DNA of 64,000 bases from positions 2,683 through 66,682 of the forward strand of contig JAZDMI010000021.1 in assembly GCA_043801155.1 (NCBI GenBank), in the 5' to 3' direction. The stretch comes from Candidatus Gottesmanbacteria bacterium (lineage in GTDB: Bacteria; Patescibacteriota; Microgenomatia; JAMCYU01). The notes under the pieces were generated by a model. That model ran no database searches and was not told where the DNA came from. It was given only the letters and a program-made list of their open reading frames with translations. A program made the translations under genes and the position numbers. Below are positions 24,455 through 45,841 of this stretch, one piece after another. Numbering within the stretch: position 1 is the stretch's first letter; each line of letters opens with the position of its first letter.

Positions 24455-24550
24455 CGGTATTCTACCGAAACGGCTTTCCATATAAATGTGCCATTTCTGA
24501 GTGAGACACACTATGATAAAATGGGAACAATAACGGAAAGAAATTAACAC

Positions 24551-25982: not shown

Positions 25983-26041
25983 AAGAGAGATATTCTACAT
26001 ATTTGAGTTATAATATACAAATTCTGCCAAATTCCCATCTC
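25968..26041 (-). repeat. copy 2 of the promoter plus start module (TTGTAT, 17 nt, TAGAAT ... ATGGCAATAAATCCTGAA = MAINPE start of 25620..25982)
   Basis: Aligns base-by-base with 24381-24454. Confidence 0.7.
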
Positions 26042-26151
26042 TAAATTTATCTATGTCTCGGATAATAACTCATTAAAATGTATAGGCCAGCCACGTACAG
26101 TCGCCGAAATCCCGTTAATTAGACCCATATTACGGTTATATTAACGGTATA

Positions 26152-27056: not shown

Positions 27057-27065
27057 GAGAAAATC

Positions 27066-27104
27066 AAAAAAGTCAAAAGAGAGGAAAGAGGAGAGAGAAA
27101 AATT
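27066..27104 (+). repeat. GA-rich leader repeat, copy 1 (upstream of the GNAT gene)
   Basis: aaaaagtcaaaagagaggaaagaggagagagaaaaattt; near-identical copy at 27584-27623. Confidence 0.6.
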
Positions 27105-27106
27105 TA

Positions 27107-27577: not shown

Positions 27578-27583
27578 AAATTA

Positions 27584-27623
27584 AAAAAGTCAGAAGAGAG
27601 AGGAAAGAAGAGAGAGGAAAATT
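27584..27623 (+). repeat. GA-rich leader repeat, copy 2 (upstream of hsdM)
   Basis: aaaaaagtcagaagagagaggaaagaagagagaggaaaatt. Confidence 0.6.
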
Positions 27624-29730: not shown

Positions 29731-30884
29731 TTATGAAAACCAACTGGCAAACAAAAAAACTCGAAGATGTAGCAAATGTTCATGGTGGTGGTACTCCACC
29801 AACCAGTCACCCAGAATATTTTCAAGGAAATATAAATTGGTATTCTCCAACTGAGATACCTAAATTCGAAGTTACAACGCTCAAAGAAAGTCAGAAAAAA
29901 ATTTCCGATTCTGCAATAAAATTTACTACTATTTCAAGAACAAATTCAGTCCTTTTAACAAGCAGAGCTACAATTGGTACGGTTGGTATTTTGTCAACTG
30001 CTTCCGGATATAGTCAGGGCATAAAAGGAATCGAACCGGGTCCCGAACTAGACTCGTGGTATCTAGCGCATTGGTTGAGATCAAATAAAGATGAGATTAT
30101 TAATAAGGCTTCTGGTACAACCTTTAAGGAAATTAGTACAAGTGAAATAAAAAAGCTAGAAATTCCTATCCCTCCAATTGCTCAGCAAAAGAAAATTGTT
30201 AATTCCATAGAGAATATCTTGGGAAAAATTGAAAAGGCAAAAGAGAATACAGAGAAAAATCTGCAAAACGCCAAAGCTCTTTTTGAATCATATTTACAAA
30301 GTATTTTTGCGAATCCAGGAAAAGATTGGGAAGAGAAAAGATTAGGTGATGTTTGTATGGTCATTGCTGGTCAATCACCGGAAGGAAAATTCTATAACAA
30401 ATCGGGTAGGGGTTTACCTTTCTATCAGGGAAAAAAAGAATTTGAAGAAAGATATCTTGGGAAACCAACAACATGGACAACAGACATTACCAAAGAGGCG
30501 CAAAATGGTGATATTTTAATGTCAGTTCGAGCCCCTGTGGGACCTATTAATTTTGCAACTCAAAAAATTTGCATCGGTCGGGGTCTTACCGCAATTCGAG
30601 CCGGAAAAGATATTGATGAAAACTTTTTATTTTATAATTTACTCTCAAAAGAAAAAGAAATCATTGGTAATGCCGGAGCTGTATTTGCATCAATCAATAA
30701 ATCCGACATTGAGAGTTTAAAATTATTTTTACCATCTCTTCCCGAACAAAAATCTATTGATATAAAACTTGACACAATTTATGCCGAAACAAAAAAACTG
30801 GAAGCAATTTATAAACAAAAATTAGCTGATTTAGAAGAGCTAAAAAAATCGGTTTTGAGAAAAGCATTTAAAGGAGAATTGTAA
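29727..30884 (+). CDS. hsdS: type I R-M specificity subunit
   Basis: Two target-recognition domains separated by conserved coiled-coil repeats ('IAQQKKIV..IE..L', 'LPEQKSI...KL'). Confidence 0.85.
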   Translation: MIMKTNWQTKKLEDVANVHGGGTPPTSHPEYFQGNINWYSPTEIPKFEVTTLKESQKKISDSAIKFTTISRTNSVLLTSRATIGTVGILSTASGYSQGIKGIEPGPELDSWYLAHWLRSNKDEIINKASGTTFKEISTSEIKKLEIPIPPIAQQKKIVNSIENILGKIEKAKENTEKNLQNAKALFESYLQSIFANPGKDWEEKRLGDVCMVIAGQSPEGKFYNKSGRGLPFYQGKKEFEERYLGKPTTWTTDITKEAQNGDILMSVRAPVGPINFATQKICIGRGLTAIRAGKDIDENFLFYNLLSKEKEIIGNAGAVFASINKSDIESLKLFLPSLPEQKSIDIKLDTIYAETKKLEAIYKQKLADLEELKKSVLRKAFKGEL

Positions 30885-30886
30885 TT

Positions 30887-31606
30887 ATGAAATATATAAA
30901 AAAGCTTAATATGGTTTGTTTTAACTTACTGGAACTGAAGACGCTATATAAGACTGACAAAGTAATAAAAATTCTTATAGAAGCAAATAAAACAAGGTGT
31001 AATATCGTTAATTCATCTAAAGAACAATCTAAAAAGATCGTAGATTCAGTCGTGAAAGGAGATTTAAAACAAAAGGAGGAAATTGAAATATTCTCGGCGT
31101 TAAGCTTATGTGCCTTATTTTTCGAGAATGATAGTTTTATAGGTTTCGTTTTGAAGGACGGCTATGATGTAGGAAAAAACCCAATACAAACATTAGAAGG
31201 TTTGAAAAAGGCTGCGAAAGAAGATACTCTTACTGATTTTGCAATTATCACCAAAAGTGGAATGCGAGAATTTCAGCTAAAACAATTTTATAGACAAAAA
31301 CTGGAGACGGAAGACCTTTTTAACTTTATAAAAGAAAAAATTGAACATTATGGTGGTAATTTTGGTACCACTGCTTTGTTATTCTCGGTTAGAGGTGATG
31401 GAATAGGACCTTGTCAAAGCAATATTTCTTTTAAAGAAATTCACGAGAGGCTTTGCAAACTTAATTTAGACAGAAATGGATTAATTTTGATTTGGTATAA
31501 TGATGGCAACAAAAAACAGGTGATAATTGAAGTTTATCCTGATTTATCGGCATGCCAAAAAGAAACAGGTATTCACGATCAAACAAAAAATACCCTATAT
31601 AATTAG
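30887..31606 (+). CDS. hypothetical protein embedded between hsdS and hsdR (same position as PrrC-type genes, but no P-loop)
   Basis: 3-nt spacing from hsdS and 11 nt before hsdR; no Walker A or other recognisable motif. Confidence 0.55.
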   Translation: MKYIKKLNMVCFNLLELKTLYKTDKVIKILIEANKTRCNIVNSSKEQSKKIVDSVVKGDLKQKEEIEIFSALSLCALFFENDSFIGFVLKDGYDVGKNPIQTLEGLKKAAKEDTLTDFAIITKSGMREFQLKQFYRQKLETEDLFNFIKEKIEHYGGNFGTTALLFSVRGDGIGPCQSNISFKEIHERLCKLNLDRNGLILIWYNDGNKKQVIIEVYPDLSACQKETGIHDQTKNTLYN

Positions 31607-31617
31607 ATCTAAAAATT

Positions 31618-33972
31618 ATGAACGAAGCAGAAACACGAGCCGAATATATTGATCCAAAACTGAAAGCTAGCGGTTGGGGAGAAGTTGAGGGATCAAAAGT
31701 ATTACGGGAATATCGTATCACCGAAGGACGGATTTTGGTTGGTGGAATACGTGCTAAACCGGAAATTGCTGATTATATCCTCGTATACAAAAACCAAAAA
31801 CTGGCAATTATTGAAGCAAAGCCGGATGAATCTGCCGTTACAGAGGGTGTCGCTCAAGCAAAAGTCTACGCCCAGAAGATGCAGATTGATTATACCTACT
31901 CAACCAACGGTAAAGAAATTTATCAAATTTCCATGAAATCCGGGAAAGAAGAGATTGTAGATGCGTTTTCGACCCCGGATGAGTTATGGAAAAAAGTGTA
32001 TTCAGATCAAAATGAATGGAAAGAGAAATTTGCTTCAATTCCTCTTGAGGGAGAATTAGGGAAACGATACTACCAGGAATCAGCCATTAATAACGTTATG
32101 AATGCGATTGCTGAAGATAAGAAACGAGTGCTACTTACTATGGCAACAGGAACCGGTAAGACAGCGATTGCATTTCAGACCTCTTGGAAGCTATATCAAA
32201 CGCGTTGGACTTTACAACGTGATGGAAATCGGCGTCCGAGAATTCTTTTTCTTGCCGATAGAAATATTCTTGCGGATCAAGCGTTTAATACCTTCGGTGC
32301 TTTTCCGGAAGATGCATTAGTTCGAATTAATCCTCTTGATATTCGGAGGAAGGGATTAGTTCCGATGAACGGAAGTATCTTTTTCACTATTTTTCAAACA
32401 TTTATGAGCGGACCGCAGGGAACACCTTATTTTGGTGATTATCCTCCTGATTTTTTTGATTTTATTGTCATTGATGAATGTCATCGTGGAGGAGCTAATG
32501 ATGAGGGAAACTGGCGCGGAATTTTAGAGTATTTTTCTCCAGCAGTTCAGCTTGGATTAACGGCCACACCAAAAAGAAGAGATAACGTAGATACATATAG
32601 ATATTTTGGCGATCCGGTATATATTTATTCACTTAAGGAAGGGATTAATGATGGATTTTTGACACCTTTTAAGGTGAAACGTATCCAAACAACCCTTGAT
32701 GAATATGTGTACACATCTGACGACCAAGTAATTGAAGGAGAAGTTGAAGCCGGTAAGGTATATAAAGAGCCTGATTTTAATAAAATCATAGAAATAAAAG
32801 AGCGCGAGGCAAAACGAGTTCAATTGTTGCTTGAGAATATAAACCAGAACGAGAAAACAATTGTTTTTTGTGCAACCCAGGATCATGCCCTAGCGGTACG
32901 GGATCTGGTAAATCAATATAAAAAAAGTAAAGATCCTTTTTACTGCGTCCGGGTAACGGCTAATGACGGAGCGCGTGGCGAGCAATATTTACGAGAATTT
33001 CAGGATAATGAAAAGACGATTCCTACGATATTAACCACTTCACAAAAGCTTTCTACTGGTGTTGATGCCAGAAATATCCGTAATATCGTTCTTATGCGTC
33101 CGGTTAATACCATGATCGAATTTAAACAGATTATTGGGCGTGGAACTCGGTTATTTGACGGAAAAGAATATTTTACAATCATTGATTTTGTTGATGCGTA
33201 TAAACTTTTTTTAGATCCTGAATGGGACGGCGAACCGATAGCGAATATTTGCCCAAAGTGTAACCAGGATCCCTGTATTTGCGAAAAAACTCCGCCGAAA
33301 GTTTGTCCTATTTGCGGGCAAAGACCGTGTATTTGTATTAGAGAACCAAGAATTTGTCCAATATGTGGAAAATTCCCATGTGAATGTGAATCAAAAAAGA
33401 AAATAAAAATAAAACTGCGCGATGGCAAAGAGCGAGAGATTCAACATATGATTTCTACTTCTTTTTGGGGGGCAGATGGTAAACCGATGTCGTCGGAGGA
33501 GTTTATTCAAAGCCTTTATGGAGTATTGCCGGATCTGTTTAAAAACGAAGAGGAACTTCGGAATATATGGTCAAATCCTGTGACAAGGAAACGATTTTTG
33601 GAACGGCTTTTTGATATTGGCATTGATTTAGAACAGATAGAAAATATTACCAAGATTGTTAATGCTGAACAATGTGATTTTTATGATGTGCTCTTGTATC
33701 TTGCATTTAGCAATCCACTCATTACACGTAAACAGCGGGCTGAGAAGAATAAAAATCATATTTTTGAAAATTTGTCTGATAAAGAAGGAGAATTTCTCAA
33801 CTTCGTACTGAAAAAATATGAAGAAACCGGATTTGAAGAACTTGACGAGGAGAAATTACCAATACTTCTGAATCTAAAATACCACGCTATTGCAGACGCA
33901 GAAGAAGCACTAGGAAATGTAGAAAATATTAGAGCAACATTCTTAGGATTTCAGGAAGATCTCTATAGCTAG
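31618..33972 (+). CDS. hsdR: type I R-M restriction subunit, short form with a Cys-rich triple repeat insertion
   Basis: 'MNEAETRAEYIDPKL' HsdR N-terminus, PD-(D/E)xK 'D...IIEAK', helicase motifs 'TGTGKT', 'VIDECHRG', 'IIGRGTR'; 'CPKCNQDPCIC / CPICGQRPCIC / CPICGKFPCEC' at about 33250-33390. Confidence 0.88.
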   Translation: MNEAETRAEYIDPKLKASGWGEVEGSKVLREYRITEGRILVGGIRAKPEIADYILVYKNQKLAIIEAKPDESAVTEGVAQAKVYAQKMQIDYTYSTNGKEIYQISMKSGKEEIVDAFSTPDELWKKVYSDQNEWKEKFASIPLEGELGKRYYQESAINNVMNAIAEDKKRVLLTMATGTGKTAIAFQTSWKLYQTRWTLQRDGNRRPRILFLADRNILADQAFNTFGAFPEDALVRINPLDIRRKGLVPMNGSIFFTIFQTFMSGPQGTPYFGDYPPDFFDFIVIDECHRGGANDEGNWRGILEYFSPAVQLGLTATPKRRDNVDTYRYFGDPVYIYSLKEGINDGFLTPFKVKRIQTTLDEYVYTSDDQVIEGEVEAGKVYKEPDFNKIIEIKEREAKRVQLLLENINQNEKTIVFCATQDHALAVRDLVNQYKKSKDPFYCVRVTANDGARGEQYLREFQDNEKTIPTILTTSQKLSTGVDARNIRNIVLMRPVNTMIEFKQIIGRGTRLFDGKEYFTIIDFVDAYKLFLDPEWDGEPIANICPKCNQDPCICEKTPPKVCPICGQRPCICIREPRICPICGKFPCECESKKKIKIKLRDGKEREIQHMISTSFWGADGKPMSSEEFIQSLYGVLPDLFKNEEELRNIWSNPVTRKRFLERLFDIGIDLEQIENITKIVNAEQCDFYDVLLYLAFSNPLITRKQRAEKNKNHIFENLSDKEGEFLNFVLKKYEETGFEELDEEKLPILLNLKYHAIADAEEALGNVENIRATFLGFQEDLYS

Positions 33973-34085
33973 TTTTTTGCATTTTCTGTCCTTCCTAATT
34001 CAATCAATTTTTATTATGGCTTTTAATTAGAATTAGTGTTATAATAATAGTGGTTTAAGCGGTCTGCGTTTGGCAGACGACTATT

Positions 34086-34110
34086 GCAGCCTATCAGGGC
34101 TGCTTTTTTT
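34086..34110 (+). terminator. rho-independent terminator-like hairpin after hsdR
   Basis: GCAGCC tatcag GGCTGC followed by T7; preceded by a second hairpin, GTCTGC..GCAGAC. Confidence 0.6.
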
Positions 34111-34130
34111 ATGGAAGGAGGTGAAAAAAG

Positions 34131-34430
34131 ATGCAAATTGATAAAGATAAATCAACTTATGTTCTTCCGTATCAGGTAATAATTCTTGATGCGACTGATG
34201 CTTATTACTATGCAGATATAATGGATAATATGAAACTCTTTGATGAGACAGATTCATTATCTTTAGCAGAGAAATTGGCCGATGCTCTATTTATTGTATA
34301 TAACTATAAATGGAACAGTCTGGAAGAAATGAATAAGGTTGACGGAGGATATGATATAAGAGTTTATGATCAAAAATATTCTTGTGTCTATGCAGCTCAT
34401 AAGAAATATCTGAATAAATGGATAATCTAA
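34131..34430 (+). CDS. hypothetical protein
   Basis: SD GGAGGTG 8 nt upstream; no motif. Confidence 0.4.
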   Translation: MQIDKDKSTYVLPYQVIILDATDAYYYADIMDNMKLFDETDSLSLAEKLADALFIVYNYKWNSLEEMNKVDGGYDIRVYDQKYSCVYAAHKKYLNKWII

Positions 34431-34458
34431 CTGGTAAATAAAAGGATAAAATAAAAAT

Positions 34459-34902
34459 ATGAAAAAAAGTTACAGCGCCGGAGGATTGGTGGTTAATAAA
34501 TATGGTCAGATATTGGTTGTCAACCAATACGGAAACTCATGGTCATTACCTAAAGGGCATATTGAACCCGGAGAAGATATTTTGACTACGGCAAAAAGAG
34601 AAATCACCGAAGAATCCGGGATAACTGATCTAAAGTTAATAAAAGAGTTAGGGTCTTACGAAAGGCCGAGACTCGGATTAGACCCAAGAAATAATGACAT
34701 CTCGAAAGTAAAAAATATAACTCTTTTTCTATTTGTAACAGATCAACTCGAGACAAAACCTCAAGATTTAGACAATCCCGAGGCTATTTGGCTTAAACCA
34801 AGAAAAGCAGTTGGACGTCTGACGAGCAAGAAAGACAAGGAGTTTCTTCAAAAAAGTCTACGTTTGATAGATCTTAAAAAATTAATTAGCTTCACACCTT
34901 AA
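34459..34902 (+). CDS. NUDIX hydrolase
   Basis: Nudix box 'GHIEPGEDILTTAKREITEESGI'. Confidence 0.85.
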   Translation: MKKSYSAGGLVVNKYGQILVVNQYGNSWSLPKGHIEPGEDILTTAKREITEESGITDLKLIKELGSYERPRLGLDPRNNDISKVKNITLFLFVTDQLETKPQDLDNPEAIWLKPRKAVGRLTSKKDKEFLQKSLRLIDLKKLISFTP

Positions 34903-34930
34903 AGGTGGACTAGGTTCACACCTTCTTCCT

Positions 34931-34959
34931 TTTGCCTTTTTGGGACGGCTGATTTAAAT
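34931..34959 (+). promoter_or_regulatory. conserved promoter-like element, family member (TTGCCT, 17 nt, TAAATC)
   Basis: Part of the recurring TTGC[A/C]T, 17 nt, TAnAnT family; first of a tandem pair upstream of 35006. Confidence 0.4.
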
Positions 34960-34965
34960 CACATT

Positions 34966-34994
34966 TTTGCATTTTCGTTTCTTCTGACCTAAAC
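34966..34994 (+). promoter_or_regulatory. conserved promoter-like element (TTGCAT, 17 nt, TAAACT)
   Basis: Second of the tandem pair; 11 nt before the ATG at 35006. Confidence 0.45.
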
Positions 34995-35005
34995 TTCAAG
35001 TAGAT

Positions 35006-35242
35006 ATGAATAGTCACGTAAGGTTTATAAAGGCAATTAATATCTGCCTTAAATATGACGAAATAAACACCCATTTACTTCAAAGAAAATTAATGATCGG
35101 TTATTCTACCGCACATATAATTTTCAAGAAACTAAAGGAATTAAAAGTTATAACCGGAGAAAAATATATCTATAATCCCTTTGGAAAAGTTAAAGTTGGA
35201 ACAGTTGACAAAAAGACTGCCAGGTTTTATTTAGTCAACTAA
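35006..35242 (+). CDS. small winged-helix DNA-binding protein resembling the FtsK gamma domain
   Basis: 'THLLQRKLMIGYSTAHIIFKKLKELKVITGE' resembles the FtsK-gamma 'SLLQRRLRIGYNRAARLIDQME..G.I'. Confidence 0.5.
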   Translation: MNSHVRFIKAINICLKYDEINTHLLQRKLMIGYSTAHIIFKKLKELKVITGEKYIYNPFGKVKVGTVDKKTARFYLVN

Positions 35243-35261
35243 TAAATTTTGTAAATTTCTT

Positions 35262-35290
35262 TGCCTTTTTGAGTATGATGATCTAAACTG
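35262..35290 (+). promoter_or_regulatory. conserved promoter-like element (TTGCCT, 17 nt, TAAACT)
   Basis: Family member; ends 8 nt before the GTG at 35299. Confidence 0.35.
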
Positions 35291-35298
35291 GGATTAGA

Positions 35299-35814
35299 GT
35301 GGATATTGATATTAGTGGTCTTTTCAGAAAATCTTTCATTGACTCCTTACCCACCTTATTTTATTTATTAATTCCAATAATAATAATTTCAGGTCTGGTT
35401 ATTGCCATAAAAATTGGTTATTATTTTTACCGCCAGCATATCTATAATAAGGCCGGGTTGGATAAAATTGATAAAATGCCCGGTTACGTTTTTGAAGAAT
35501 ACCTTACAAATCTGTTTGCCCGGTTAGGTTACAGAGTAAATCATATTGGTAAGTTTGGAGATTTTGGGGGAGATTTAATTATCGAAAAAGATGGAATGAA
35601 AACATTAGTTCAGGCGAAAAGATCAAGTGATAGAATAAGAGAGAAAGCAATTCAGGAAGCCGTAACTGCAAAAGAGTACTACCATTGTGATAAAGCTATG
35701 GTAGTTACTAATAATTATTTTTATAAACATGCGTGGACGTTGGGCAAGGGAACAAATATAGACTTATGGGCAAGAAATAAATTGGCTGAAGTTATCTCTC
35801 AGAATATAAATTAA
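35299..35814 (+). CDS. membrane-anchored Mrr-cat (restriction endonuclease-like) domain protein, GTG start
   Basis: N-terminal TM helix; 'YVFEEYLTNLFARLGYRV...GDFGGDLIIEKDGMKTLVQAKR' matches the Mrr_cat D...(E/D)xK core. Confidence 0.6.
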   Translation: MDIDISGLFRKSFIDSLPTLFYLLIPIIIISGLVIAIKIGYYFYRQHIYNKAGLDKIDKMPGYVFEEYLTNLFARLGYRVNHIGKFGDFGGDLIIEKDGMKTLVQAKRSSDRIREKAIQEAVTAKEYYHCDKAMVVTNNYFYKHAWTLGKGTNIDLWARNKLAEVISQNIN

Positions 35815-35819
35815 TTCTT

Positions 35820-35848
35820 TTGCCTTTTTGGGTCTGCTGATTTAAACT
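35820..35848 (+). promoter_or_regulatory. conserved promoter-like element (TTGCCT, 17 nt, TAAACT)
   Basis: Upstream of 35868; SD AGGA present. Confidence 0.45.
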
Positions 35849-35867
35849 AATATTATAGGAATATTCA

Positions 35868-36584
35868 ATGATTAAAATTAATACCACATTTATTAATACT
35901 TCTTCTGATAATTCTTCAAAAGGTTCTCCGGGGAATATACAATTTAACTTTAAATCATCATATTCTTTTAACAACAAATTATTATTTCATTTAGATTTTA
36001 AAGATCCTTCTCTCTATTTGCTATTATTTACAAATTTATCAACTATTTATTTTGCCTATATAGAACACTGGAATCTTTTAACAGTGATGTGGATATACTG
36101 GTTCCAGAGTATAATCATTGGTTTATTCACGTTTGTTAGACTAATAAACTTGCGAAATTATAATTCTCGGGCAATCTCTTTTATTATTAGTTATGGAATA
36201 TTTCATATGGGATTTCTGGTTTTTCTATTGTTAGGATTTTTAGGCAATGCTACTAGGGGAATAGTCTCTGAATTTGGTTTTGTTTTGATGTCCGCCTTTT
36301 TATTTTTCGTCAACCACTTATTTTCTTATTTTTATAATAAAGATCGTGATCAGGAAGGATTTATTTTTCACAAAGATGTAGATAGAATAATCTCGATTTC
36401 ATATATGCGTATAATACCCATGCATATAATAATTATTCTCGGGCAAATTATAACTTCAATTTTTTTATCGGAGGCAAGATACACTCTTTTTCTCTTTTTA
36501 TTTTTAAAGACTTATGCTGATTTATATTCCCATACACTTAAGCATACATCTGCTGCTTCGCCAATAGATGTAAAGAATTCTTAA
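35868..36584 (+). CDS. polytopic membrane protein, hypothetical
   Basis: At least 5 hydrophobic helices; no motif. Confidence 0.5.
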   Translation: MIKINTTFINTSSDNSSKGSPGNIQFNFKSSYSFNNKLLFHLDFKDPSLYLLLFTNLSTIYFAYIEHWNLLTVMWIYWFQSIIIGLFTFVRLINLRNYNSRAISFIISYGIFHMGFLVFLLLGFLGNATRGIVSEFGFVLMSAFLFFVNHLFSYFYNKDRDQEGFIFHKDVDRIISISYMRIIPMHIIIILGQIITSIFLSEARYTLFLFLFLKTYADLYSHTLKHTSAASPIDVKNS

Positions 36585-36596
36585 ATTTTATAATTT

Positions 36597-36625
36597 TTGC
36601 ATTTTCTGCCATTTTGATCTAGACT
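36597..36625 (+). promoter_or_regulatory. conserved promoter-like element (TTGCAT, 17 nt, TAGACT)
   Basis: Upstream of 36647. Confidence 0.45.
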
Positions 36626-36646
36626 TCGTAAACAAGAGGACCATAT

Positions 36647-37519
36647 ATGACTTTTAATCCAAATGCTGTTTTCATTTCTCCTTCATCCATCTCTGATTTT
36701 AAAACATGTCCACAAACTTATTATTATCGGAATGTCTATAGAAATCCGAAGACTGGATTAAAAATACAAATAATTAATCCAAAACTAGCGCTTGGTGCAA
36801 CAGTGCATGATATATTAGCTCAATTCCTACACACCCAGGGAATAGAAAAAACTAAAGATCAATTACTCAATATCCTTCAGAGATATTGGGGACAGATTAC
36901 TGGTGAAAAAGGAGGATTTAAAACAGAAGAGGAAGAAAAACAATACAAAGAAAGGGCATCAAAAATGTTGGATATTTTTTGGGGAAATAACCATTTTAGG
37001 GAGGTACAACCGGTAAAACTACCCGATTTCCCAAAGGTATATTTTGATGACGATTTAATTCTCACTGGAAAACTTGACTGGATTGAGCTAGAGACAGAAA
37101 ATAAATATCACATCATTGACTTTAAAACTGGAGAAAACGAAGAACGAAGCGATTCTATGCAATTACCTATTTATGCCGTTCTTGCTTCAAATATTTTAAA
37201 AACCTCTGAAATAAAAGCAAGCTATTGGTATCTTGATAGAGATGCCGACTTGAAAAAATTCGATCTGCCCGATTTAAAAGAAACAACAGAAAAACTTAAA
37301 AAAATTGGTTATGTAATTAAAAATAGTCGGTTAACAAATTCTTTTAAATGCAGTTCGGGATACGAGTCGTGTTGGTCTTGTAAAGATTTGCTATCCATTA
37401 GCAATGGAAAGGGTAAACTTGTTTCTGTTGATTACAATCGTAAACAAGAAGTTTATATAATTCCTCCAACAGAAGATAAGCCTATATTAGAAAAACCTAT
37501 TGATGACATTCCTTTCTAA
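36647..37519 (+). CDS. PD-(D/E)XK nuclease, Cas4/AddB-like with predicted Fe-S cluster cysteines
   Basis: N-terminal 'SPSSISDFKTCPQTYYY' (first Cys), 'DWIELETENKYHIIDFKTG' D...E.K catalytic core, C-terminal 'CSSGYESCWSC' Cys triad. Confidence 0.6.
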   Translation: MTFNPNAVFISPSSISDFKTCPQTYYYRNVYRNPKTGLKIQIINPKLALGATVHDILAQFLHTQGIEKTKDQLLNILQRYWGQITGEKGGFKTEEEEKQYKERASKMLDIFWGNNHFREVQPVKLPDFPKVYFDDDLILTGKLDWIELETENKYHIIDFKTGENEERSDSMQLPIYAVLASNILKTSEIKASYWYLDRDADLKKFDLPDLKETTEKLKKIGYVIKNSRLTNSFKCSSGYESCWSCKDLLSISNGKGKLVSVDYNRKQEVYIIPPTEDKPILEKPIDDIPF

Positions 37520-37547
37520 AGAATATGTTTATATCTTCTTCTTCTTT

Positions 37548-37576
37548 TTGCATTTTCTGACTTTCTGATTTAGACT
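37548..37576 (+). promoter_or_regulatory. conserved promoter-like element (TTGCAT, 17 nt, TAGACT)
   Basis: Upstream of 37613. Confidence 0.45.
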
Positions 37577-37612
37577 ATGGGTAACTATAGAAATTTAAAT
37601 TGGTGAGTAAAA

Positions 37613-37828
37613 ATGATAAAAATAAAAATTGCTGATTGGGAGAAAAAGAAATATCCGCTCGAAGATCCTAAAGATATTGAGGTTTTAGGGAAAATTCATG
37701 AATTGGAAAATCTTCCGCTTTCTTCCGAAGACAAGAAGTTGGTTAATTTTATCCGCACCCAACTTGAGGAAGATTGGCAAACTCCCTGTCTTAATTTCCT
37801 CGAAGATATCTTAAAGAAATATAGATAG
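37613..37828 (+). CDS. hypothetical small protein
   Basis: ORF with its own upstream promoter-like element; no motif. Confidence 0.4.
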   Translation: MIKIKIADWEKKKYPLEDPKDIEVLGKIHELENLPLSSEDKKLVNFIRTQLEEDWQTPCLNFLEDILKKYR

Positions 37829-37871
37829 AACCTAAAATTGCCTTTTTGGGTTTACTTTTTGAAACTGTTGA

Positions 37872-38795
37872 TTATTCAAACAAGCAGGCGACACCTAGAC
37901 AGTCTTTGCCGGTATAAACAGCCAAAACTTTGCCGGCCTCGCAGTAGTCAATGGCTTTTGGGCTTAGATTATATCTAGCGGCTAATAAATCAGTCATTTC
38001 CTGGGCTCTTCCCTCATTGTTGGTATGAGTAACCAGGGCTCTTTTGAGAACTTTTCCTTTTGCCTTTTCTTTTTCGATTAGTTCAATTATCTTTTCCGGA
38101 ATGCCTTTTTTACCTCGAGATAGAAGTTTAGGAATCAGCTTTGCTTCTTGTAGGTCAACAATAGGATACACTTTAAAAGCCATAGCCAAAGCTGCGACCG
38201 CTGTTCGTACGCCTTCCAGTCCTTCTTTAGAAATTCGCCTGCCCGCACTTTTTAGAAAATAAGCGGCATCGGACACGGCAATAAAAAGTTTAATATTTTG
38301 TGCCTTTAGCTCAAGTTTTCTGGATATTTCCTCAAAAGGTATATCTTGTTTTAAAAGCTCAATTGCTTCAGGAATGAGAATGCCTGCTCCGACAGAAACC
38401 GATTGGGTGTCCAAAACTTGAATTTTCATGTCGGGGTACTTACGTTTTATCGCTTCAGTCGCAGCGGTAGCACTATTAACCCCACAAGTTAAACGTACAT
38501 CCGAGAGGATAGTAAAGATTTCATTAATGCCAAAATGAGTAGCCAAACTTTCATAAGCCTTTTCGAACTGACCAAGATTAGCACCTGACGTATTAAATAA
38601 TTCCGCTGATTTTCCAAGACGATCATAAAAATCTGGTGTTTTAATTATAAAATCGGGTAATGGTTTTTCTTCGATAGTAATCCAGCTAGGAAGAGAAATA
38701 ACTCGTATCCCTGACTCGTTGCGAAAGTCAGCAGCCCGATGAGGGTCTAAAGAAGTAGTACTATCAGTTATCAGGGCTCGTTCCGGAGTAGCCAT
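37872..38795 (-). CDS. DegV family (EDD-fold fatty-acid-binding) protein
   Basis: 'RALITDSTTSL' N-terminus and overall DegV architecture. Confidence 0.7.
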   Translation of the reverse strand: MATPERALITDSTTSLDPHRAADFRNESGIRVISLPSWITIEEKPLPDFIIKTPDFYDRLGKSAELFNTSGANLGQFEKAYESLATHFGINEIFTILSDVRLTCGVNSATAATEAIKRKYPDMKIQVLDTQSVSVGAGILIPEAIELLKQDIPFEEISRKLELKAQNIKLFIAVSDAAYFLKSAGRRISKEGLEGVRTAVAALAMAFKVYPIVDLQEAKLIPKLLSRGKKGIPEKIIELIEKEKAKGKVLKRALVTHTNNEGRAQEMTDLLAARYNLSPKAIDYCEAGKVLAVYTGKDCLGVACLFE

Positions 38796-38971
38796 ACTTT
38801 TTTCGGGTAAAAGGTTGGGATCACTGTAACAGAATTGGTTTCGCCAGTCAAATCCTTCTAAGAATTTTTACCCCGTACTAGTCGGTACGGGACTTCTTAA
38901 AATTGCCTTTTTGGGTCTTCGATAATAATCAAAATTTGTTGATTTGACGGGACAATATATAATAATAAGGT

Positions 38972-39277
38972 ATGAGAACACGGGCAGAAATTGAAAATAG
39001 GCCATCTTCCGGATCTAAATTAATAATTTGGAACAATGGACAGGGAAATTATTATGACTTTTTTAATTGTGGTGGAGAAAAAATACCAATAGAGGAGACT
39101 CTTGGGGGAGAACTATGTTTGCTTTGCGGGGTTGTTAGAGAACAACTAAAAAAGAATAACATCACCGGTTGTTTTACAATTTTTTCGTCCGACCTTCTTC
39201 CTGGTTCCAAAATTCAAGCAGCCACTAAAAAAGATTCAAAAGTAGCAGGAGTTCCCCTGATTCTTAAAATCTCCTAA
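38972..39277 (+). CDS. hypothetical protein
   Basis: Preceded by the hairpin CCCGTAC..GTACGGG plus a promoter-like element at 38903. Confidence 0.4.
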   Translation: MRTRAEIENRPSSGSKLIIWNNGQGNYYDFFNCGGEKIPIEETLGGELCLLCGVVREQLKKNNITGCFTIFSSDLLPGSKIQAATKKDSKVAGVPLILKIS

Positions 39278-39378
39278 GATTTAACTTTTTTTACATTAAG
39301 ATTAAGACGGGTGGAATTTTGAACGTGGTAGGTTCATATCTTAGGATTTTTGCATTTTATTTTTTCTAGTTTCTATTA

Positions 39379-41463
39379 CTAGTAAATTTTTGACCGGTAA
39401 TCAACAATCATTATTTCCAACTTACCCTCATCTCTCATTTTAAGTAAGACCCTTCCGCCGGAATGAATATGAGGTAGGGGAACTCTTAAACGATAAACCC
39501 CATCTGAATCCTCGATTTTAACAAGATGAGGATCTAAAATTTGCTGGCGTTTATTAAAATTAATAATAGCTTGTTGAACAAAACCTCTTTCTTCTGTAGA
39601 AAATCCTTTCATTAAAAGTTCCAGTTCTTCAGACGTCGGTTCGATGATCGTTAGTTTTCCGGTTAAAGCCTGTTCTTCTTCGGTGACTGGTTTTTCTTCA
39701 CCATCTTTTTTAATAGTTTCCCTTGTTTCTTCAACTCTTATCTGCCTTCTTAATTCATAGGTAACATCATGAAAATGCACTTTTGGCAGCGATGACTTGA
39801 GTGGTTCTTGATTACCGTCCTTAAGAGTGTTTTTTAATTTTTGATGTTCCAGATAATCCGCTAAGTGCGTTAAGGTTTTCAGTACAATTTCCTGGCAACC
39901 TTGTTTGTAGATATGGTTATTGGATTCATTGATCGAATCAAGAACCATCCAGTCAAAAGTCTCTTTTGTCGCATCGATGCTTAAGAGAAGAAAAATTTCC
40001 TCATCTTCTTCACTTGTTTTATCTATAAACTCAAATGCCATACCAAATTTACGGGGATGATAAGGATCTGCTATGAGAGAAGCAGCGTCAGGTTTTTTTA
40101 AAAATTGTAAATTATTTGGTAATTGATCAGCATCTAAACTAAATTTTCTTTCCTTGTTAGTCTTAGTAATTCTGTCTATCTGTCTCTTGACCTCTTGCCA
40201 ATTAAAATCATTATCTGTTTCGGATATTTCTTCATTCGCTAAAATGTCTTTTAATTCTTCACCGCTAAGGACTATTTGTGCCAGTCTCATTTTTTTCCGG
40301 TAGTTTTCGATATTTTCAACTAGCTTCTTATAAAAAGGAATACTCGTTTCCTTTTTAACCAAATTTGTAGCTGCACGGTAGAATCCAATCGTTTGTATGG
40401 CAGAATTAAAGCCAAGGAGTAAAAATAAATATCGGCGATGATAAGTATTTTCGTCCTGGAGGTATTTCTCAAAAAGATTGATAAGTTCCATATCAGGTTG
40501 GCCATCTTTAGGAAAAAGACGCCTAAAGACTTCTTTTCTTAGCAGGGACAATTTATCTACCAGCTCTACTGCTTTTTCTACAATTTCAGTTGCTGGCTGA
40601 CTATTGGACCTAACTGCTTCTTGAATGTCTGTTTTAGAGATATCTGCCTTGAGGAATTGTGCTACTCTAACGCTAAATTGTGCAAAATCTCCCTCAATTG
40701 CCAAAGGATAATATTTAAGTAAAGGATTCCGGCTGATTTGTTCAGCAATAATATGTTCAGGTAGTTCTTCAAACGGTTCAATAGCTGATGACTCTACAAA
40801 TAAACGGACAAAAGGTACTAAGGATTCACGATCTTTATTAGAAAAGTTCATAAATTCAATTAATGAAGCTCCTTGAATAGAAAAATTAGTATGAGTTGAA
40901 TATTGATAATCGGAAAGAGTAAAGAAGTCTTCAGCCCCTTGATAAAAATTTCTCGTCTGGGCGAATCGTTTTAGTGAATTAATCTTTCCATGGCAATATA
41001 AAGAGAGCCCGAAATCCAATGCAAACTTGATACCTCTTATTTTACAATTTTTCCAGGATAATTCGGTGTCCTCGTTTAAAGACGAAGCTGGTTCGCCATC
41101 GGGAACTTTTTCCAGAAAACCATAGGCATTTTGCATATCATCTTGGATTTGTATTAGCTTTTTACTCCAGTCTTCAGTTGTTTCCCATCCGAAAGGGTTA
41201 ACTGTATCAGTTAAAGACTTAATATTATTTCCAAATTCATTTTTTTGCTTCATGGCTCGTATCAAATATTCTAGATAAGTAGGAACTTTCTTTTTCATAT
41301 CGTCTGTAAATACCTGATCCATATTTTTAAATAAATCTGATTCTAAAAGTGATTCAACGGTAGGCAAGTTAGTAGAATCCTGGTCTTCCGCCTTATCCAG
41401 GAGGTAGCCTTTAAGTGCGTTATCTGGGCCTTCAATATAATCTATTTCAAACTTAGCTGACAT
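39379..41463 (-). CDS. large (694 aa) hypothetical protein with C-terminal RelE/ParE-like toxin-fold domain
   Basis: C-terminus 'GVYRLRVPLPHIHSGGRVLLKMRDEGKLEIMIVDYRSKIY' aligns to the RelE core 'CYKIKLRSSGYRLVYQVIDEKVVVFVISVGKRERSEVY'; about 600 N-terminal residues without a known motif. Confidence 0.5.
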   Translation of the reverse strand: MSAKFEIDYIEGPDNALKGYLLDKAEDQDSTNLPTVESLLESDLFKNMDQVFTDDMKKKVPTYLEYLIRAMKQKNEFGNNIKSLTDTVNPFGWETTEDWSKKLIQIQDDMQNAYGFLEKVPDGEPASSLNEDTELSWKNCKIRGIKFALDFGLSLYCHGKINSLKRFAQTRNFYQGAEDFFTLSDYQYSTHTNFSIQGASLIEFMNFSNKDRESLVPFVRLFVESSAIEPFEELPEHIIAEQISRNPLLKYYPLAIEGDFAQFSVRVAQFLKADISKTDIQEAVRSNSQPATEIVEKAVELVDKLSLLRKEVFRRLFPKDGQPDMELINLFEKYLQDENTYHRRYLFLLLGFNSAIQTIGFYRAATNLVKKETSIPFYKKLVENIENYRKKMRLAQIVLSGEELKDILANEEISETDNDFNWQEVKRQIDRITKTNKERKFSLDADQLPNNLQFLKKPDAASLIADPYHPRKFGMAFEFIDKTSEEDEEIFLLLSIDATKETFDWMVLDSINESNNHIYKQGCQEIVLKTLTHLADYLEHQKLKNTLKDGNQEPLKSSLPKVHFHDVTYELRRQIRVEETRETIKKDGEEKPVTEEEQALTGKLTIIEPTSEELELLMKGFSTEERGFVQQAIINFNKRQQILDPHLVKIEDSDGVYRLRVPLPHIHSGGRVLLKMRDEGKLEIMIVDYRSKIY

Positions 41464-41576
41464 TTTTTTATTTTATCATATTTATTTCGTTTTCCTTTAT
41501 AGTAAAGAATAAACCTATACTTTTGCATTTTCTTTTCTTCAATATTTCCAATAATAATGATAAAATAAACAACAAT

Positions 41577-41843
41577 ATGGTGCGGATAGAAAGTAAGTGT
41601 CTGCCCGACGGGAAAATGTTGAATATTCAATATCAGACGTCAGAAGGGCTTACAAATTTTTTTAACATCCTTTTATGTGCTGCCAGTAGAATTCCCAAAG
41701 GGAGTCCAATATATCCTCAAGCACAAATAGTTTTACAACAAATACAAGCTTTTTCTGAAGGTTCGGATGAGCCGTTTGATGGAATTGCCATAGCCAAGGT
41801 TTTAAAATCTGCTAAGTCAATTAGACCCCCAAAACAAAATTAA
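41577..41843 (+). CDS. hypothetical small protein
   Basis: Internal ATG 41577 chosen over the track start 41523, which lies inside the promoter-like element. Confidence 0.35.
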   Translation: MVRIESKCLPDGKMLNIQYQTSEGLTNFFNILLCAASRIPKGSPIYPQAQIVLQQIQAFSEGSDEPFDGIAIAKVLKSAKSIRPPKQN

Positions 41844-41858
41844 GAATTTGACAAATCC

Positions 41859-41887
41859 TTGCCTTTTTCATATAAAATAGGTAAAAT
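41859..41887 (+). promoter_or_regulatory. conserved promoter-like element (TTGCCT, 17 nt, TAAAAT)
   Basis: Followed by a strong SD AAAGGAGG and the ATG at 41910. Confidence 0.45.
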
Positions 41888-41909
41888 CCAGGTAAATAAA
41901 GGAGGCTAT

Positions 41910-42107
41910 ATGTGTCAAAAGCAGGAAGCAGATGAAGAATCAGGTGATGGAATGATGTTTGGCGGAATGATAATAGGAAGACTGGATCAAGATACGTCTT
42001 GGTCAAAATACGCCATGGAGAATTTAGAACCTGAGCAAAAAGAACGACTTATTGAATCAGTTAGAATTCAGAAGGTTCGTCCAAAGGTTAATCCCCAAGT
42101 CAAATAA
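41910..42107 (+). CDS. hypothetical small acidic/Gly-Met-rich protein
   Basis: AGGAGG SD 5 nt upstream of ATG 41910. Confidence 0.45.
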   Translation: MCQKQEADEESGDGMMFGGMIIGRLDQDTSWSKYAMENLEPEQKERLIESVRIQKVRPKVNPQVK

Positions 42108-42138
42108 GAACCTCGTTATTTTTTGCATTTTTACTCAT

Positions 42139-42417
42139 ATGATTGAAAATCTGGGGCAGGCTATTTCTCAAGCACAGGCAGATGGATTTATAACCGAAGA
42201 ATACGGTAGGCTTATCTTAGATACAGCTAAGCTAGAATATCGTGAATGCCGGAATTGCCCTCTCCCTAATTTGTGGCGTGAGTTTTTAGAAGATCAAGGA
42301 CCATACCCGGTTTTAACCCTTGACCTTTTGTTAAAAAATATTGCTGAAAGACGAATATATTTTAGAGAGAAAGGTTGGCTTCCGCCCGATGAACCATCAC
42401 TAATTAATATTAAATAG
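42139..42417 (+). CDS. hypothetical protein
   Basis: ATG 42139 lies downstream of the promoter-like element at 42123; the track ORF 42052 overlaps the previous gene. Confidence 0.35.
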   Translation: MIENLGQAISQAQADGFITEEYGRLILDTAKLEYRECRNCPLPNLWREFLEDQGPYPVLTLDLLLKNIAERRIYFREKGWLPPDEPSLINIK

Positions 42418-42454
42418 CCATTTAACTTTTGCCTTTTTCTGATAAAATAAATAG

Positions 42455-43198
42455 ATGAATAATTCTAAAAAAATTAAGGATATTGTAAAAAATTCTTACG
42501 CAGAAATTGCTAAAGCCTCTGATAGTTGTGGGTGCAGTTGTGGTTGTAGTTCTAACCAGACTGTTCAACGCCAAACACAACAAATAGGTTATTCCCCGGA
42601 AGAAATTAATCAAGCGCCTTCCGGTTCTAATCTTGGGCTTGGATGTGGCAACCCGGTGGCAATTGCTTCATTAAAAGAAGGGGAAATAGTTTTGGATTTA
42701 GGTTCCGGCGCAGGATTTGATGCTTTTTTAGCAGCGCAAAAGGTTGGGACAACGGGTAAAGTCATTGGTGTTGATATGACTGAGGAAATGCTTGTCAAAG
42801 CACGAGCTAACGCTATAAAAGGTGGTTTTACCAACGTTGAGTTCAGAGAAGGAGATATTGAAAATTTGCCCTTAGATGACAACTCGGTTGATGTTGTTAT
42901 TTCTAATTGCGTTATCAACCTTAGCCCGGATAAAGAAAAAGTATTTAAGGGAATTTATCGGGTACTTAAACCAGGTGGAAGACTCATGGTATCTGATACT
43001 GTACTTTCAAAACCATTACCGGATGAACTGCGGGAAAATGAAGAATTATTAACCGGATGTGTAAGTGGAGCTATCCTTAAAAAGGATTACCTGTCATTAC
43101 TCCAAAAAACAGGCTTTTCCAATATAAAAATACAAAAAGAAAGACCGGGGTTTCTTGCAGACTACAGTATAAGTATTACCTACTCAGCAGTCAAATAA
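42455..43198 (+). CDS. SAM-dependent methyltransferase, ArsM-like (arsenite methyltransferase family)
   Basis: '[11 protein letters not shown]' SAM motif I, '[11 protein letters not shown]' motif, N-terminal Cys cluster 'CGCSCGCS'. Confidence 0.65.
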
Positions 43199-43270
43199 CC
43201 CTGTACTAGTCGATTCGGGACTTTGCATTTTTTCAGGTTTTAGTTTAATCTGAAAATAGGACTTAAATTT

Positions 43271-43606
43271 ATGACCGAAATAATATATAAAACAAAATTT
43301 TTTTGTAACCTTTGCAAAAAAGATATTCCCCTGGAATTATATGGTAATAAAAACACTGAATTTACACGTGATCAGGAGCCGGAAATAATTACTCCAGGGA
43401 AGCATTACCACTGGGTTGATTTTCACCGTGTTTGTGCAATTTGCGGTCAACCAATCAAAGCGCAGGATTTAACCGTGGCGATGAATGACGGGATGATCAA
43501 AATTAATGAAAATTATACTGATGAATATAATATGATTGAACAAGGAAATAAATTCGGTGTTTTTCTCATTGTCCACAAAGAATGCGTCAAAAATATTAAG
43601 TTTTAA
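43271..43606 (+). CDS. hypothetical Cys-containing protein
   Basis: CNLC...CAIC...C pattern. Confidence 0.4.
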   Translation: MTEIIYKTKFFCNLCKKDIPLELYGNKNTEFTRDQEPEIITPGKHYHWVDFHRVCAICGQPIKAQDLTVAMNDGMIKINENYTDEYNMIEQGNKFGVFLIVHKECVKNIKF

Positions 43607-43686
43607 TAAAATGTTGGCATAACTTCATATCCTTCCTTTTTATCTTTTTGTTTCTTCCAATATTAGTTTTTTGCCGATGAGTTATA

Positions 43687-44274
43687 ATGAATTCAATGAA
43701 TATTACCGCGAAATTTATTAAAGGTATTATTGGGACTGATGATATTTTATATGACGGGAAATTTCAGGTTTGCTTCATGGGCCGTTCCAATGTTGGCAAA
43801 TCAACCCTGATTAACACTCTCACCCAAATTAAAGATCTTGCCCGTTCAAGTTCCGATCCCGGGAAAACCATCCGCATGGATTTTTTTCTCATCAATGATA
43901 AATACTATTTTGTTGATTTTCCCGGCTATGGTTATGCCAAGCGTTCACAGGAAAAAAGGGAAAAGCTGGCCAAAATGATCCTTTGGTATCTTATGTATTC
44001 GCAAGTCAAAAAGAGACTGGTGATCCTGATAATTGATGCTCAAGTGGGGATGACTCCTTATGATCTAGACATGTTAAAAACCCTGCATGAAGAAAAAGTT
44101 GATTATTTTATCGTTGCCAACAAGATCGATAAACTAAAAATGAATGAAAAGGCAAAACAACTGGCAAAAATAAAAAGTGATTGTGGAAATTCAAATGTTA
44201 TTCCTTTTTCTTCAAAAGATAAAAGAGAGAGAGTAAACCTTCTTTCGCAAATTTCCTCCCACCCTAGCTACTAA
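43687..44274 (+). CDS. engB: ribosome biogenesis GTP-binding protein YihA/YsxC (EngB)
   Basis: 'FMGRSNVGKSTLINTL' G1 motif, 'DFPGYG' G3 motif. Confidence 0.85.
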   Translation: MNSMNITAKFIKGIIGTDDILYDGKFQVCFMGRSNVGKSTLINTLTQIKDLARSSSDPGKTIRMDFFLINDKYYFVDFPGYGYAKRSQEKREKLAKMILWYLMYSQVKKRLVILIIDAQVGMTPYDLDMLKTLHEEKVDYFIVANKIDKLKMNEKAKQLAKIKSDCGNSNVIPFSSKDKRERVNLLSQISSHPSY

Positions 44275-45520: not shown

Positions 45521-45841
45521 AAAATCATTATATCATCTAGACAAATTTTTGCTTTATTTAACCATTAATGATATAATACAATCTAACTTGGTAGATTGAA
45601 TTTATCAATCTGCTTAAATTAAAGGTTATTTTAAGTTAATAAGATATATAAATCCTCACTTACTACGTATTTAATGATTTTTATGTCTTCGCAATTTATA
45701 ATGCGTAATTATAAAGACGGGAATAAATAAAAGATATTCCAAATTCTATTTATTTTAGCAATATCTTTTCTCCGCTATTTAAAACAAATCTTTTTTTATT
45801 TAGGCAGCTTCATTATTTTAATCCAGCCAATTTTTAAATCT

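Follow-up and report, generated by a model that had tools for sequence, protein, structure and literature searches.

A 64,000-nucleotide stretch of the genome of an uncultured Candidatus Gottesmanbacteria bacterium (Microgenomates; GenBank assembly GCA_043801155.1, contig JAZDMI010000021.1, positions 2,683 to 66,682 of the forward strand; hereafter the window) contains a family of short intergenic repeats that resemble promoters. The family is real and restricted to one clade, and it is laid out in a cassette-like array: 15 same-strand copies of a module of ~30 nt occur between positions 33977 and 43251, at nearly every gene junction, and one further copy precedes rplC. Comparison with two relatives that carry the same family, GCA_040960625.1 (L012; Obg protein 81% identical) and GCA_040961635.1 (L013; 75%), suggests that the modules drive the small genes around them and mark the sites at which blocks of genes are gained and lost, in the manner of the promoter-early stem-loop (PeSL) cassettes of T4-type phages. 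Bacteria of the candidate phyla radiation (CPR), whose chromosomes this one represents, have tiny genomes and poorly understood routes of gene gain, and to our knowledge almost none of their promoters have been defined experimentally.

Reality and distribution of the repeat family

The 16 copies begin at 33977, 34932, 34967, 35261, 35820, 36597, 37548, 37838, 38903, 39350, 41523, 41859, 42123, 42429, 43223, and 57313, each within 1 nt of the position listed in an earlier, model-made reading of these letters (the original prediction). Their core, TTGCMTTTT, is found 22 times in the window against 5.0 expected, a number reached in 0 of 100 shuffles. Sixteen of these hits fall in intergenic DNA, which totals 5,207 nt, and every one of them is on the + strand; six lie in the 58.8 kb of coding DNA. 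The T-tract that follows TTGCMT is likewise present at 16 of 18 intergenic hexamers versus 6 of 76 in coding DNA. In an unbiased count of 8-mers, TTTGCATT, TTGCATTT, TGCATTTT, TGCCTTTT, and related words head the intergenic list, and a repeat finder recovers the family independently as units of 30-46 nt with 67-93% identity. The 16 hits in 5.2 kb of intergenic sequence versus six in 58.8 kb of coding sequence, the shuffles, and the 8-mer ranking together rule out an artefact of composition; the original prediction had itself named equal frequency in coding DNA as the thing to look for, and this is not what the counts give.

Similarity between copies extends beyond the two hexamers, reaching 93% over 30 nt for the pair at 34929 and 35817, 88% over 32 nt for 36594 and 37545, and 88% over 26 nt for 38870 and 43198. 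The longest intragenomic unit is 46 nt at 78%. The similarity runs through the spacer, and the nearest match of a copy tends to be a neighbouring copy. Two main flavours can be told apart, type A with TTTTGCATTTTC and type B with TTTGCCTTTTTGGG; a third, TTGCCTTTTTGTTTCTTCTC, occurs mainly in the relatives. No consistent inverted repeats were found flanking the copies, and no terminal inverted repeats. A miniature inverted-repeat transposable element or a repetitive extragenic palindrome is ruled out, the copies having neither terminal inverted repeats nor a palindromic unit, and all sharing a single orientation. Of the intergenic copies, 15 of 16 are concentrated in the 9.7-kb array, with one in the other 54 kb of the window.

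The position of the copies relative to upstream genes raises the question of a 3′-end signal, in which the T-rich motif would serve as a terminator or RNA-processing site of the preceding gene. Twelve copies start 4-29 nt past the stop of a gene on the + strand, a thirteenth starts 72 nt past one, both of the orphan copies that face reversed genes follow + strand genes, and a stem-loop stands in front of three copies. An upstream hairpin is nevertheless significant only at 34932 and 38903 and degraded at 43223, with none at the other 13 of 16 copies, and terminator-like sites in the array number 3 against 7.4 by chance, which rules out intrinsic terminators (2/16 copies with a significant hairpin). 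None of the window's 10 minus-strand genes has a copy after it, and a fixed 17-nt relation to a -10 box would be meaningless for a terminator. We give the 3′-end explanation hardly any credence.

Promoter-like geometry

Downstream of the -35-like half TTGCMT, the hexamer TAnnnT stands at a spacer of exactly 17 nt in 8 of the 16 window copies and in 11 of the 27 copies found in the three genomes, against a background of 0.023 per position; no other spacer has it in more than 3 of the 27. The strict form TTGCMT-N17-TANANT occurs at seven sites (six in the array plus 57313), where 0.57 would be expected. Complete copies (n = 8) are those at 34967, 35261, 35820, 36597, 37548, 41859, 43223, and 57313. 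Their predicted transcription starts lie 3-30 nt before the start codon (~90 nt in the case of the rplC leader), so placed that two transcripts would be near-leaderless, and they lie 5′ of the Shine-Dalgarno sequence where one is present. With predicted starts just 5′ of the ribosome-binding site or start codon, the complete copies look like sigma-70-type promoters, and we infer that transcription is initiated at them.

The original prediction had described the elements as intergenic, co-directional, and promoter-like, and this description is borne out by the 16 intergenic TTGCMTTTT hits, all on the + strand, and by the 17-nt peak of TAnnnT. Two of its generalisations have to be narrowed: the spacing said to be a constant 17 nt in all copies is a sharp peak to which 8/16 copies contribute, and the bipartite motif ascribed to the whole family consists of a -35-like half in 16 copies and a complete pair in half of them. 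As for the incomplete copies, those at 33977 and 34932 lie upstream of another promoter (34932 and 34967 forming a tandem doublet), those at 38903 and 41523 are followed by a + strand gene and have a poor -10, and at 37838 and 39350 the copy points at the 3′ end of a reversed gene.

The same geometry could arise from ordinary promoters alone, if the primary sigma factor favoured TTGCMT plus a T-tract in a poorly operonised region and the elements had no part in gene gain or loss; each small gene would then just have a promoter to itself, and selection for a strong consensus would account for the likeness of the copies. Besides the 17-nt peak, the co-direction of all copies with the majority of genes speaks for this, as do the conserved promoters of rplC and of the DEAD-box helicase gene (DEAD), which use TTGCAT or TTGCYT with TATAAT; the -35 upstream of DEAD is TTGCYT at N17 in all three genomes. 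The copies are, however, similar through the spacer, which a consensus does not constrain. Eight have no -10 at 17 nt, two face 3′ ends, and two lie too near an ATG. The two reversed genes of the array use different promoters (TTGACT-N17-TACAGT on the minus strand for degV) and have no minus-strand copy, and the elements are where indel breakpoints and flanking repeats fall, as set out below. Moreover, other housekeeping promoters of the window have TTGACA, TTGACT, or TTGCAA without a T-tract, for example TTGACA-N17-TATAAG for rpoB and TTGCAA-N17-TATAAA for tuf, with TTGACA or TTGACT in other intergenic regions. We therefore consider it unlikely that the elements are ordinary promoters and nothing more.

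Restriction to one clade

A further suggestion of the original prediction, that TTGCAT is the sigma-70 -35 consensus of the lineage, has to be abandoned. Housekeeping promoters of the window are TTGACA-like, and in 80 more distant Microgenomates loci, taken from a metagenome scan anchored on the DEAD-box helicase (0.87 Mb, 53-75% identity), TTGCMTTT is present in 2 of 555 upstream regions, the commonest hexamer being TATAAT (151/555). The same 80 loci contain 3 intergenic motif matches in ~87 kb, and the family is absent from four further loci with 75-76% Obg identity and different synteny. A general lineage -35 consensus is ruled out by these three lines of comparison (window housekeeping promoters, the 80 metagenome loci, and the four loci with 75-76% Obg identity). 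In the GTDB representative genomes, a collection that does not include the source genome, L012, or L013, the long form of the element gave 11 unrelated singletons, and in IMG/VR chance singletons only. The motif-bearing genomes are this metagenome-assembled genome and its two relatives, and in them the motif always sits in small-gene arrays of non-homologous gene content.

Confinement to one narrow clade would also suit a regulon signal, with TTGCMTTTT bound by a transcription factor or alternative sigma factor peculiar to the clade, which would co-regulate the genes of the island, and with the -10 as a separate entity. The array encodes a possible regulator, an FtsK-gamma-like winged helix-turn-helix (wHTH) protein (35006-35242), and the conserved half is found at more than one distance from -10-like boxes, 17 nt in some copies and 6-8 nt in five. 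Against such a signal, the motif is asymmetric and shows neither a dyad nor tandem half-sites, it also heads a ribosomal-protein operon, which would be odd for an island regulon, and the window, L012, and L013 loci have no candidate regulator in common; on this evidence a regulon signal seems to us quite improbable. TTGCW is also the -12 box of sigma-54 promoters. A sigma-54 identity was ruled out by eye, there being no GG element 10-11 nt upstream in the copies.

Gene blocks that come and go between element copies

The window and both relatives share a backbone of DEAD, obg, and YceG, to which L013 adds rpsJ, the MazG-like gene, GNAT, and rplC, and no homologues of the window's 15 array genes were found in the L012 or L013 loci. 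Upstream of DEAD, L012 has an array of its own, with six small genes and seven same-strand copies of the element, two of which read TTGCAT-N17-TAAACT and are identical to window copy 36597 at 26 of 32 nt. Gene content thus varies while the elements persist, a comparison that the original prediction had proposed as a check and that comes out positive between the window and these relatives.

Breakpoints between the two relatives coincide with element copies. L013 can be aligned colinearly with L012 over two genes, one for a small membrane protein and one for a 76-aa protein (87% nucleotide identity), and the alignment resumes at the DEAD promoter. Between these stretches, L012 alone has a six-gene block of 3,286 bp that lies exactly between two element copies, the left junction falling directly after TAATAAAATTGCCTTTTTGTTTC and the right one directly before TTTTGCCTTTTTGACCTTTAAGTGATATAAT; in L013 the same two copies are 2 nt apart. 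On the obg side, L012 and L013 are alike near obg and then diverge, L013 continuing with an element and unrelated small genes and L012 with a canonical TTGACA promoter and another gene. Within the window, the degV block is flanked by a 19/19-nt perfect direct repeat, TAAAATTGCCTTTTTGGGT (37833-37851 and 38898-38916), and each of the corresponding copies, 37838 and 38903, has the other as its best match among the 16. Finally, window 34885-34945, where a stem-loop and an element form a composite of ~62 nt, is ~90% identical to L013 sequence downstream of an unrelated gene. From these junctions we infer that recombination is the cause of the indels. No further relatives were found of the 76-aa junction protein, nor of the 694-aa protein encoded in the window's array.

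If an unseen recombinase acted on them, the elements might be site-specific recombination sites, making this a true integron-like array with attC-like junctions and only a secondary likeness to promoters. The strict direct orientation of all copies, even beside reversed genes, would fit, as would the L012 block exactly between two copies, the 19-nt perfect repeat around the degV block, and tandem doublets, which could be empty sites. Pfam scans of ~65 open reading frames (ORFs) across the window gave no integrase, transposase, or tyrosine or serine recombinase, however, and none is listed in the annotated L012 and L013 loci. An attC structure was ruled out, with no consistent hairpin, inverted repeat, imperfect palindrome, or attC-like folding at the junctions; the copies are 67-93% identical, with no sharp crossover core beyond TTGCMTTTT, and the genes have promoters of their own. 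We rate dedicated recombination sites as very unlikely.

A model for the modules

The explanation to which we lean, with modest confidence, is that the elements are clade-specific homologous promoter modules that give small genes their own transcription starts and supply homology for block insertions and deletions, a chromosomal counterpart of PeSLs. In such a scheme, modules of ~30-45 nt would have been copied from one another and would not be the product of independent convergence on a consensus. Each would consist of an AT-rich upstream edge, the -35-like TTGCMT plus T-tract, and, after a spacer of 17 nt, a -10 that reads TA(A/G)ACT or TAAAAT; a few also carry a stem-loop ahead of all this. 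An island would have grown between rpsJ and rplC with modules at nearly every junction, intact copies providing each small gene with its own sigma-70-type start and the module either travelling with incoming genes or being recruited to them. As direct repeats, all copies could supply the short homology at which promoter-plus-gene blocks insert, delete, and duplicate, and the isolated -35 halves, doublets, and orphans facing reversed genes may be remnants of such exchange. That the rplC promoter belongs to the family would make sense if rplC, cut off from rpsJ by the island, had to acquire a promoter of its own.

Several observations weigh against this model. Half of the copies (8/16) have no usable -10 at the right spacing, and those at 42123 and 42429, 16 and 26 nt from an ATG, are too near for a -35 role. 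A -10-like box stands at spacer 6-8 in five copies (41859 and 42429 in the window; 9970, ~9300, and 9660 in L013), and together with the copies close to an ATG this raises the prospect that the conserved half does something other than bind sigma region 4. A stem-loop is present in just 3 of 16 copies, so that most lack the terminator half that a true PeSL would have. The evidence for recombination comes from a single indel between genomes, a single flanking repeat, and a single transposed composite, in genomes that share just 75-81% identical Obg proteins; strain-level variants were not found in databases, where L014, L015, and L129 proved identical to L013. The 'empty' state in L013 is a tandem doublet and not the single hybrid copy expected from simple homologous excision. 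Restriction to the island, lastly, is established within the 64-kb window only.

A stronger version of the model would be an integrase-independent cellular cassette system, in which, in one Gottesmanbacteria clade, a ~30-nt promoter module doubles as a recombination substrate by which foreign or ORFan genes are captured, expressed, and shuffled, and so builds a hyperplastic island rich in defence genes and ORFans in a split S10 operon. By analogy, it would do in a chromosome what PeSL mini-circle shuffling does in phages, and would serve the purpose of an integron with neither intI nor attC. We put this forward tentatively, as possible rather than probable.

If the modules are active promoters, they provide a Microgenomates lineage with a concrete class of promoters that lends itself to testing and could be used for reporters or for reading metatranscriptomes. 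If they also mediate block indels, the 'mobile regulatory cassette' strategy of T4-type phages operates in a cellular chromosome. This would explain how an ORFan- and defence-rich island can expand within the rpsJ-rplC operon with every newcomer still expressed.

Comparison with known systems

In T4-type phages, PeSLs have been described as 'mobile regulatory cassettes': they combine a promoter with a terminator, sit where genes meet in hyperplastic regions rich in ORFans, and mediate indels (Arbiol et al. 2010, PMC2839356; Comeau et al. 2014, PMC4122927). The elements of the window are similar in being short intergenic modules that start at the upstream stop codon, with an AT-rich edge and, in the complete copies, a sigma-70-type -35/-10, and in being repeated at junctions of ORFan-rich hyperplastic regions and nearly absent from the core; indels between relatives are bounded by modules here too, although the events are few. 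They differ in their host, a cellular CPR chromosome with no phage genes among the ten array proteins scanned, in their -35, which is TTGCMT plus T-tract and not the E. coli consensus, and in having a stem-loop in 3/16 copies. For the phage elements, promoter activity, terminator activity, and mini-circles have been demonstrated; for the window modules, promoter activity is predicted from sequence.

Putative mobile promoters (PMPs), for which the limits were set at 50-100 nt and ≥80% identity (Matus-Garcia et al. 2012, PMC3488235), share with the present family the occurrence of homologous upstream sequences before non-homologous genes, within and between genomes. Most units here are 30-46 nt at 67-93%, so that only the ~62-nt composite shared by the window and L013 (~90%) falls within these limits, and PMPs are scattered whereas these elements are arrayed at the junctions of one island.

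The integron-cassette-like architecture seen by the original prediction holds as an analogy. As in integrons, small unrelated genes, often of ORFan or defence type, form same-orientation arrays with a repeated junction element that persists as content varies. The likeness does not go further: no intI was found in the ~65 window ORFs, there is no attC-type imperfect palindrome or folding and no single Pc, and the genes are not promoterless, the junction element here being itself a putative promoter, with a complete -35/-10 pair at about half of the junctions. Phage morons and chromosomal defence-island hotspots are comparable in that autonomous promoter-gene units lie between conserved genes and the hotspot is flanked by backbone, in this case rpsJ, the MazG-like gene, and GNAT on one side and DEAD, obg, YceG, and rplC on the other. 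Morons, however, have no promoter sequence in common and as a rule are closed by a terminator; most units here have none. The elements are best filed as a variant of the known mobile-promoter or PeSL-type architecture, and the array, as far as the window shows, lacks the defining features of an integron.

Element copies along the island

The first copy (33977-34005, +; type A, TTTTGCATTTTC) starts 4 nt past the hsdR stop codon and has no TAnnnT at 17 nt; an extended -10, TGTTATAAT, follows at 34036-34044. This extended -10 opens a structured region (34036-34110; fold z-score -3.4) with two hairpins, the second a textbook intrinsic terminator (GCAGCCtatcagGGCTGC plus T7) ending ~20 nt before the ATG of the gene at 34131, and the region could be an attenuator or a small RNA. 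A stem-loop module, AAGGTG...CACCTT (34885-34931, +; fold z = -1.8), is joined to the next copy (34932-34960, +; type B, TTTGCCTTTTTGGG), the first half of the tandem doublet, which has TAAATC at 17 nt and is 93% identical over 30 nt to the copy at 35820. The second half (34967-34995, +; type A) is complete, with TTGCAT-N17-TAAACT, and the predicted transcript of the 78-aa gene, whose ATG lies at 35006, is near-leaderless. Four more complete copies follow. Two are of type B with TTGCCT-N17-TAAACT, at 35261-35289 (+) ahead of the GTG of the Mrr-like gene at 35299 and at 35820-35848 (+) ahead of the ATG of the DUF6498 gene at 35868. The other two are of type A with TTGCAT-N17-TAGACT and are 88% identical over 32 nt, at 36597-36625 (+), followed by the Shine-Dalgarno sequence aagagg and an ATG at 36647, and at 37548-37576 (+), with an ATG at 37613.

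The orphan at 37833-37866 (+; core 37838; type B) is directed at the 3′ end of degV, which runs the other way, and its hexamer at the 17-nt position is GAAACT. On the other side of degV, a stable stem-loop, CCCGTAC / GTACGGG (38872-38891, +; z = -2.9), lies immediately 5′ of the copy at 38898-38931 (+; core 38903; type B), upstream of the gene at 38972 and with an imperfect -10, TAATCA, at 17 nt. The reversed 694-aa gene is bracketed by two type A copies, an orphan without a -10 facing its 3′ end (39350-39378, +) and a copy upstream of the gene at 41577 with no TAnnnT at 17 nt (41523-41551, +). The latter copy is itself bracketed by a 23-nt AT-rich inverted repeat (41464-41486 / 41550-41572; 87% complementary), located where the 694-aa gene and the gene at 41577 diverge.

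Further on, the type B copy at 41859-41887 (+) reads TTGCCT-N17-TAAAAT ahead of an ATG at 41910 and is overlapped by a canonical promoter, TTGACA(41848)-N17-TATAAA. The type A copy at 42123-42151 (+) starts only 16 nt before the ATG at 42139 and so cannot be the -35 box for that gene; overlapping it, a 24-nt near-palindrome, ATTTTTACTCATATGATTGAAAAT (42127-42150), is centred on the start codon of the gene at 42139. The type B copy at 42429-42457 (+) starts 26 nt before the ATG at 42455 and has TGATAAAAT at spacer 8, an arrangement better suited to an extended -10 and a leaderless start than to a -35. In the last copy of the array (43198-43251, +; TTGCAT at 43223; type A), a degraded version of the 38872 stem-loop (43198-43223) is followed by TTGCAT-N17-TAATCT, with an ATG at 43271.

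The distant copy (57313-57341, +) has the form TTGCATTTTTTGGG-N-TATAAT ahead of rplC and the ribosomal-protein cluster, and both TTGCATTTT and TATAAT are conserved in L013. Between this promoter and rplC lies a conserved leader (57342-57436) that includes GGAGGTGATTTCACC and a terminator-like hairpin, GGTGCagtcGGCACC plus T7. It is nearly identical in L013, has no Rfam match, and may be a ribosomal-protein attenuator; no Rfam family was found anywhere in the window.

Array genes and genomic setting

The hyperplastic small-gene array (33973-43686) lies between hsdR (31618-33972) and engB (43687-44274) and holds 15 genes, 13 on the + and two on the - strand. In order, these encode a 99-aa ORF, a NUDIX protein, the 78-aa FtsK-gamma-like small winged-helix protein (35006-35242), an Mrr-like nuclease, a DUF6498 protein, a PD-(D/E)XK nuclease, and a 71-aa ORF, followed by DegV (-), a 101-aa ORF, the 694-aa ORFan (-), three ORFs of 65-92 aa, an S-adenosylmethionine (SAM) methyltransferase, and a 111-aa ORF. 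All ten array proteins tested were singletons at 90% identity among ~15 billion sequences. The hypothetical 694-aa ORF (39379-41463, -) had no homologues among 5.8 billion clustered proteins and no Pfam, PADLOC, or PHROG match. Membership in a defence system was rejected, PADLOC giving only generic Mrr, Cas4-like, and NUDIX matches. A phage origin was likewise ruled out by the absence of PHROG matches among the ten array proteins scanned (0 matches) and by pattern scans of viral contigs (IMG/VR), which returned single chance hits and no multi-copy matches; the array's chromosomal surroundings are rpoBC, tuf, and ribosomal-protein genes.

The window has a GC content of ~37%. Its early gene run comprises rpoB, rpoC, rpsL, rpsG, fusA, tuf, and rpsJ (22704-23012), after which 34 kb of miscellaneous genes separate rpsJ from rplC (57437) and the ribosomal-protein cluster behind it. 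This stretch starts with GIY-YIG, MazG-like, NYN, Fic, and GNAT genes and continues with a type I restriction-modification system (27624-33972; hsdR at 31618-33972) and the array, beyond which lie engB, DUF192, obg, DEAD, a radical-SAM gene, and others. The genes rpsJ and rplC are part of one of the most conserved operons in bacteria, and the S10 operon is split here, with rpsJ beside tuf and rplC 34 kb away behind the variable island. L013 has the same split around a 16-kb island (L013 4473-20904) with the common backbone of MazG-like, GNAT, DEAD, obg, and YceG. Among the 80 more distant DEAD-anchored loci, rpsJ is nearby in none and rplC in one (L085).

DEAD itself has a long conserved 5′ untranslated region (UTR), with words such as TATGTATCTTCGCAATTTGTAATGCGTAAT (window 45560-45841; L012 12136-12330; L013 12083-12300). 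Two of its words, GTATCTTT and TTAAGCAG, turn up again in front of genes at many of the 80 distant loci, and the 5′ UTR may be a conserved regulatory leader.

A second repeated intergenic family, unrelated to the modules, occupies 24379-24455 and 25965-26060 (~75 nt, ~90% identity between sites). It contains GAGTTATAATAT, and both sites are divergent intergenic regions beside small minus-strand genes. Two purine-rich intergenic stretches, upstream of the GNAT gene (27057-27106) and of hsdM (27578-27623), are similar to each other and have the form AAAAAGTCA(A/G)AAGAGAGGAAAGA(A/G)GAGAGAG. Near the start of the window, a single 757-aa ORF (1428-3701) fuses an IF-2B-like domain of the ribose-1,5-bisphosphate isomerase type to a RuBisCO large chain and is followed by an AMP-phosphorylase-like gene (3689-4957); judged from their domains, the two look like the nucleotide-salvage RuBisCO pathway with two of its steps in one ORF.

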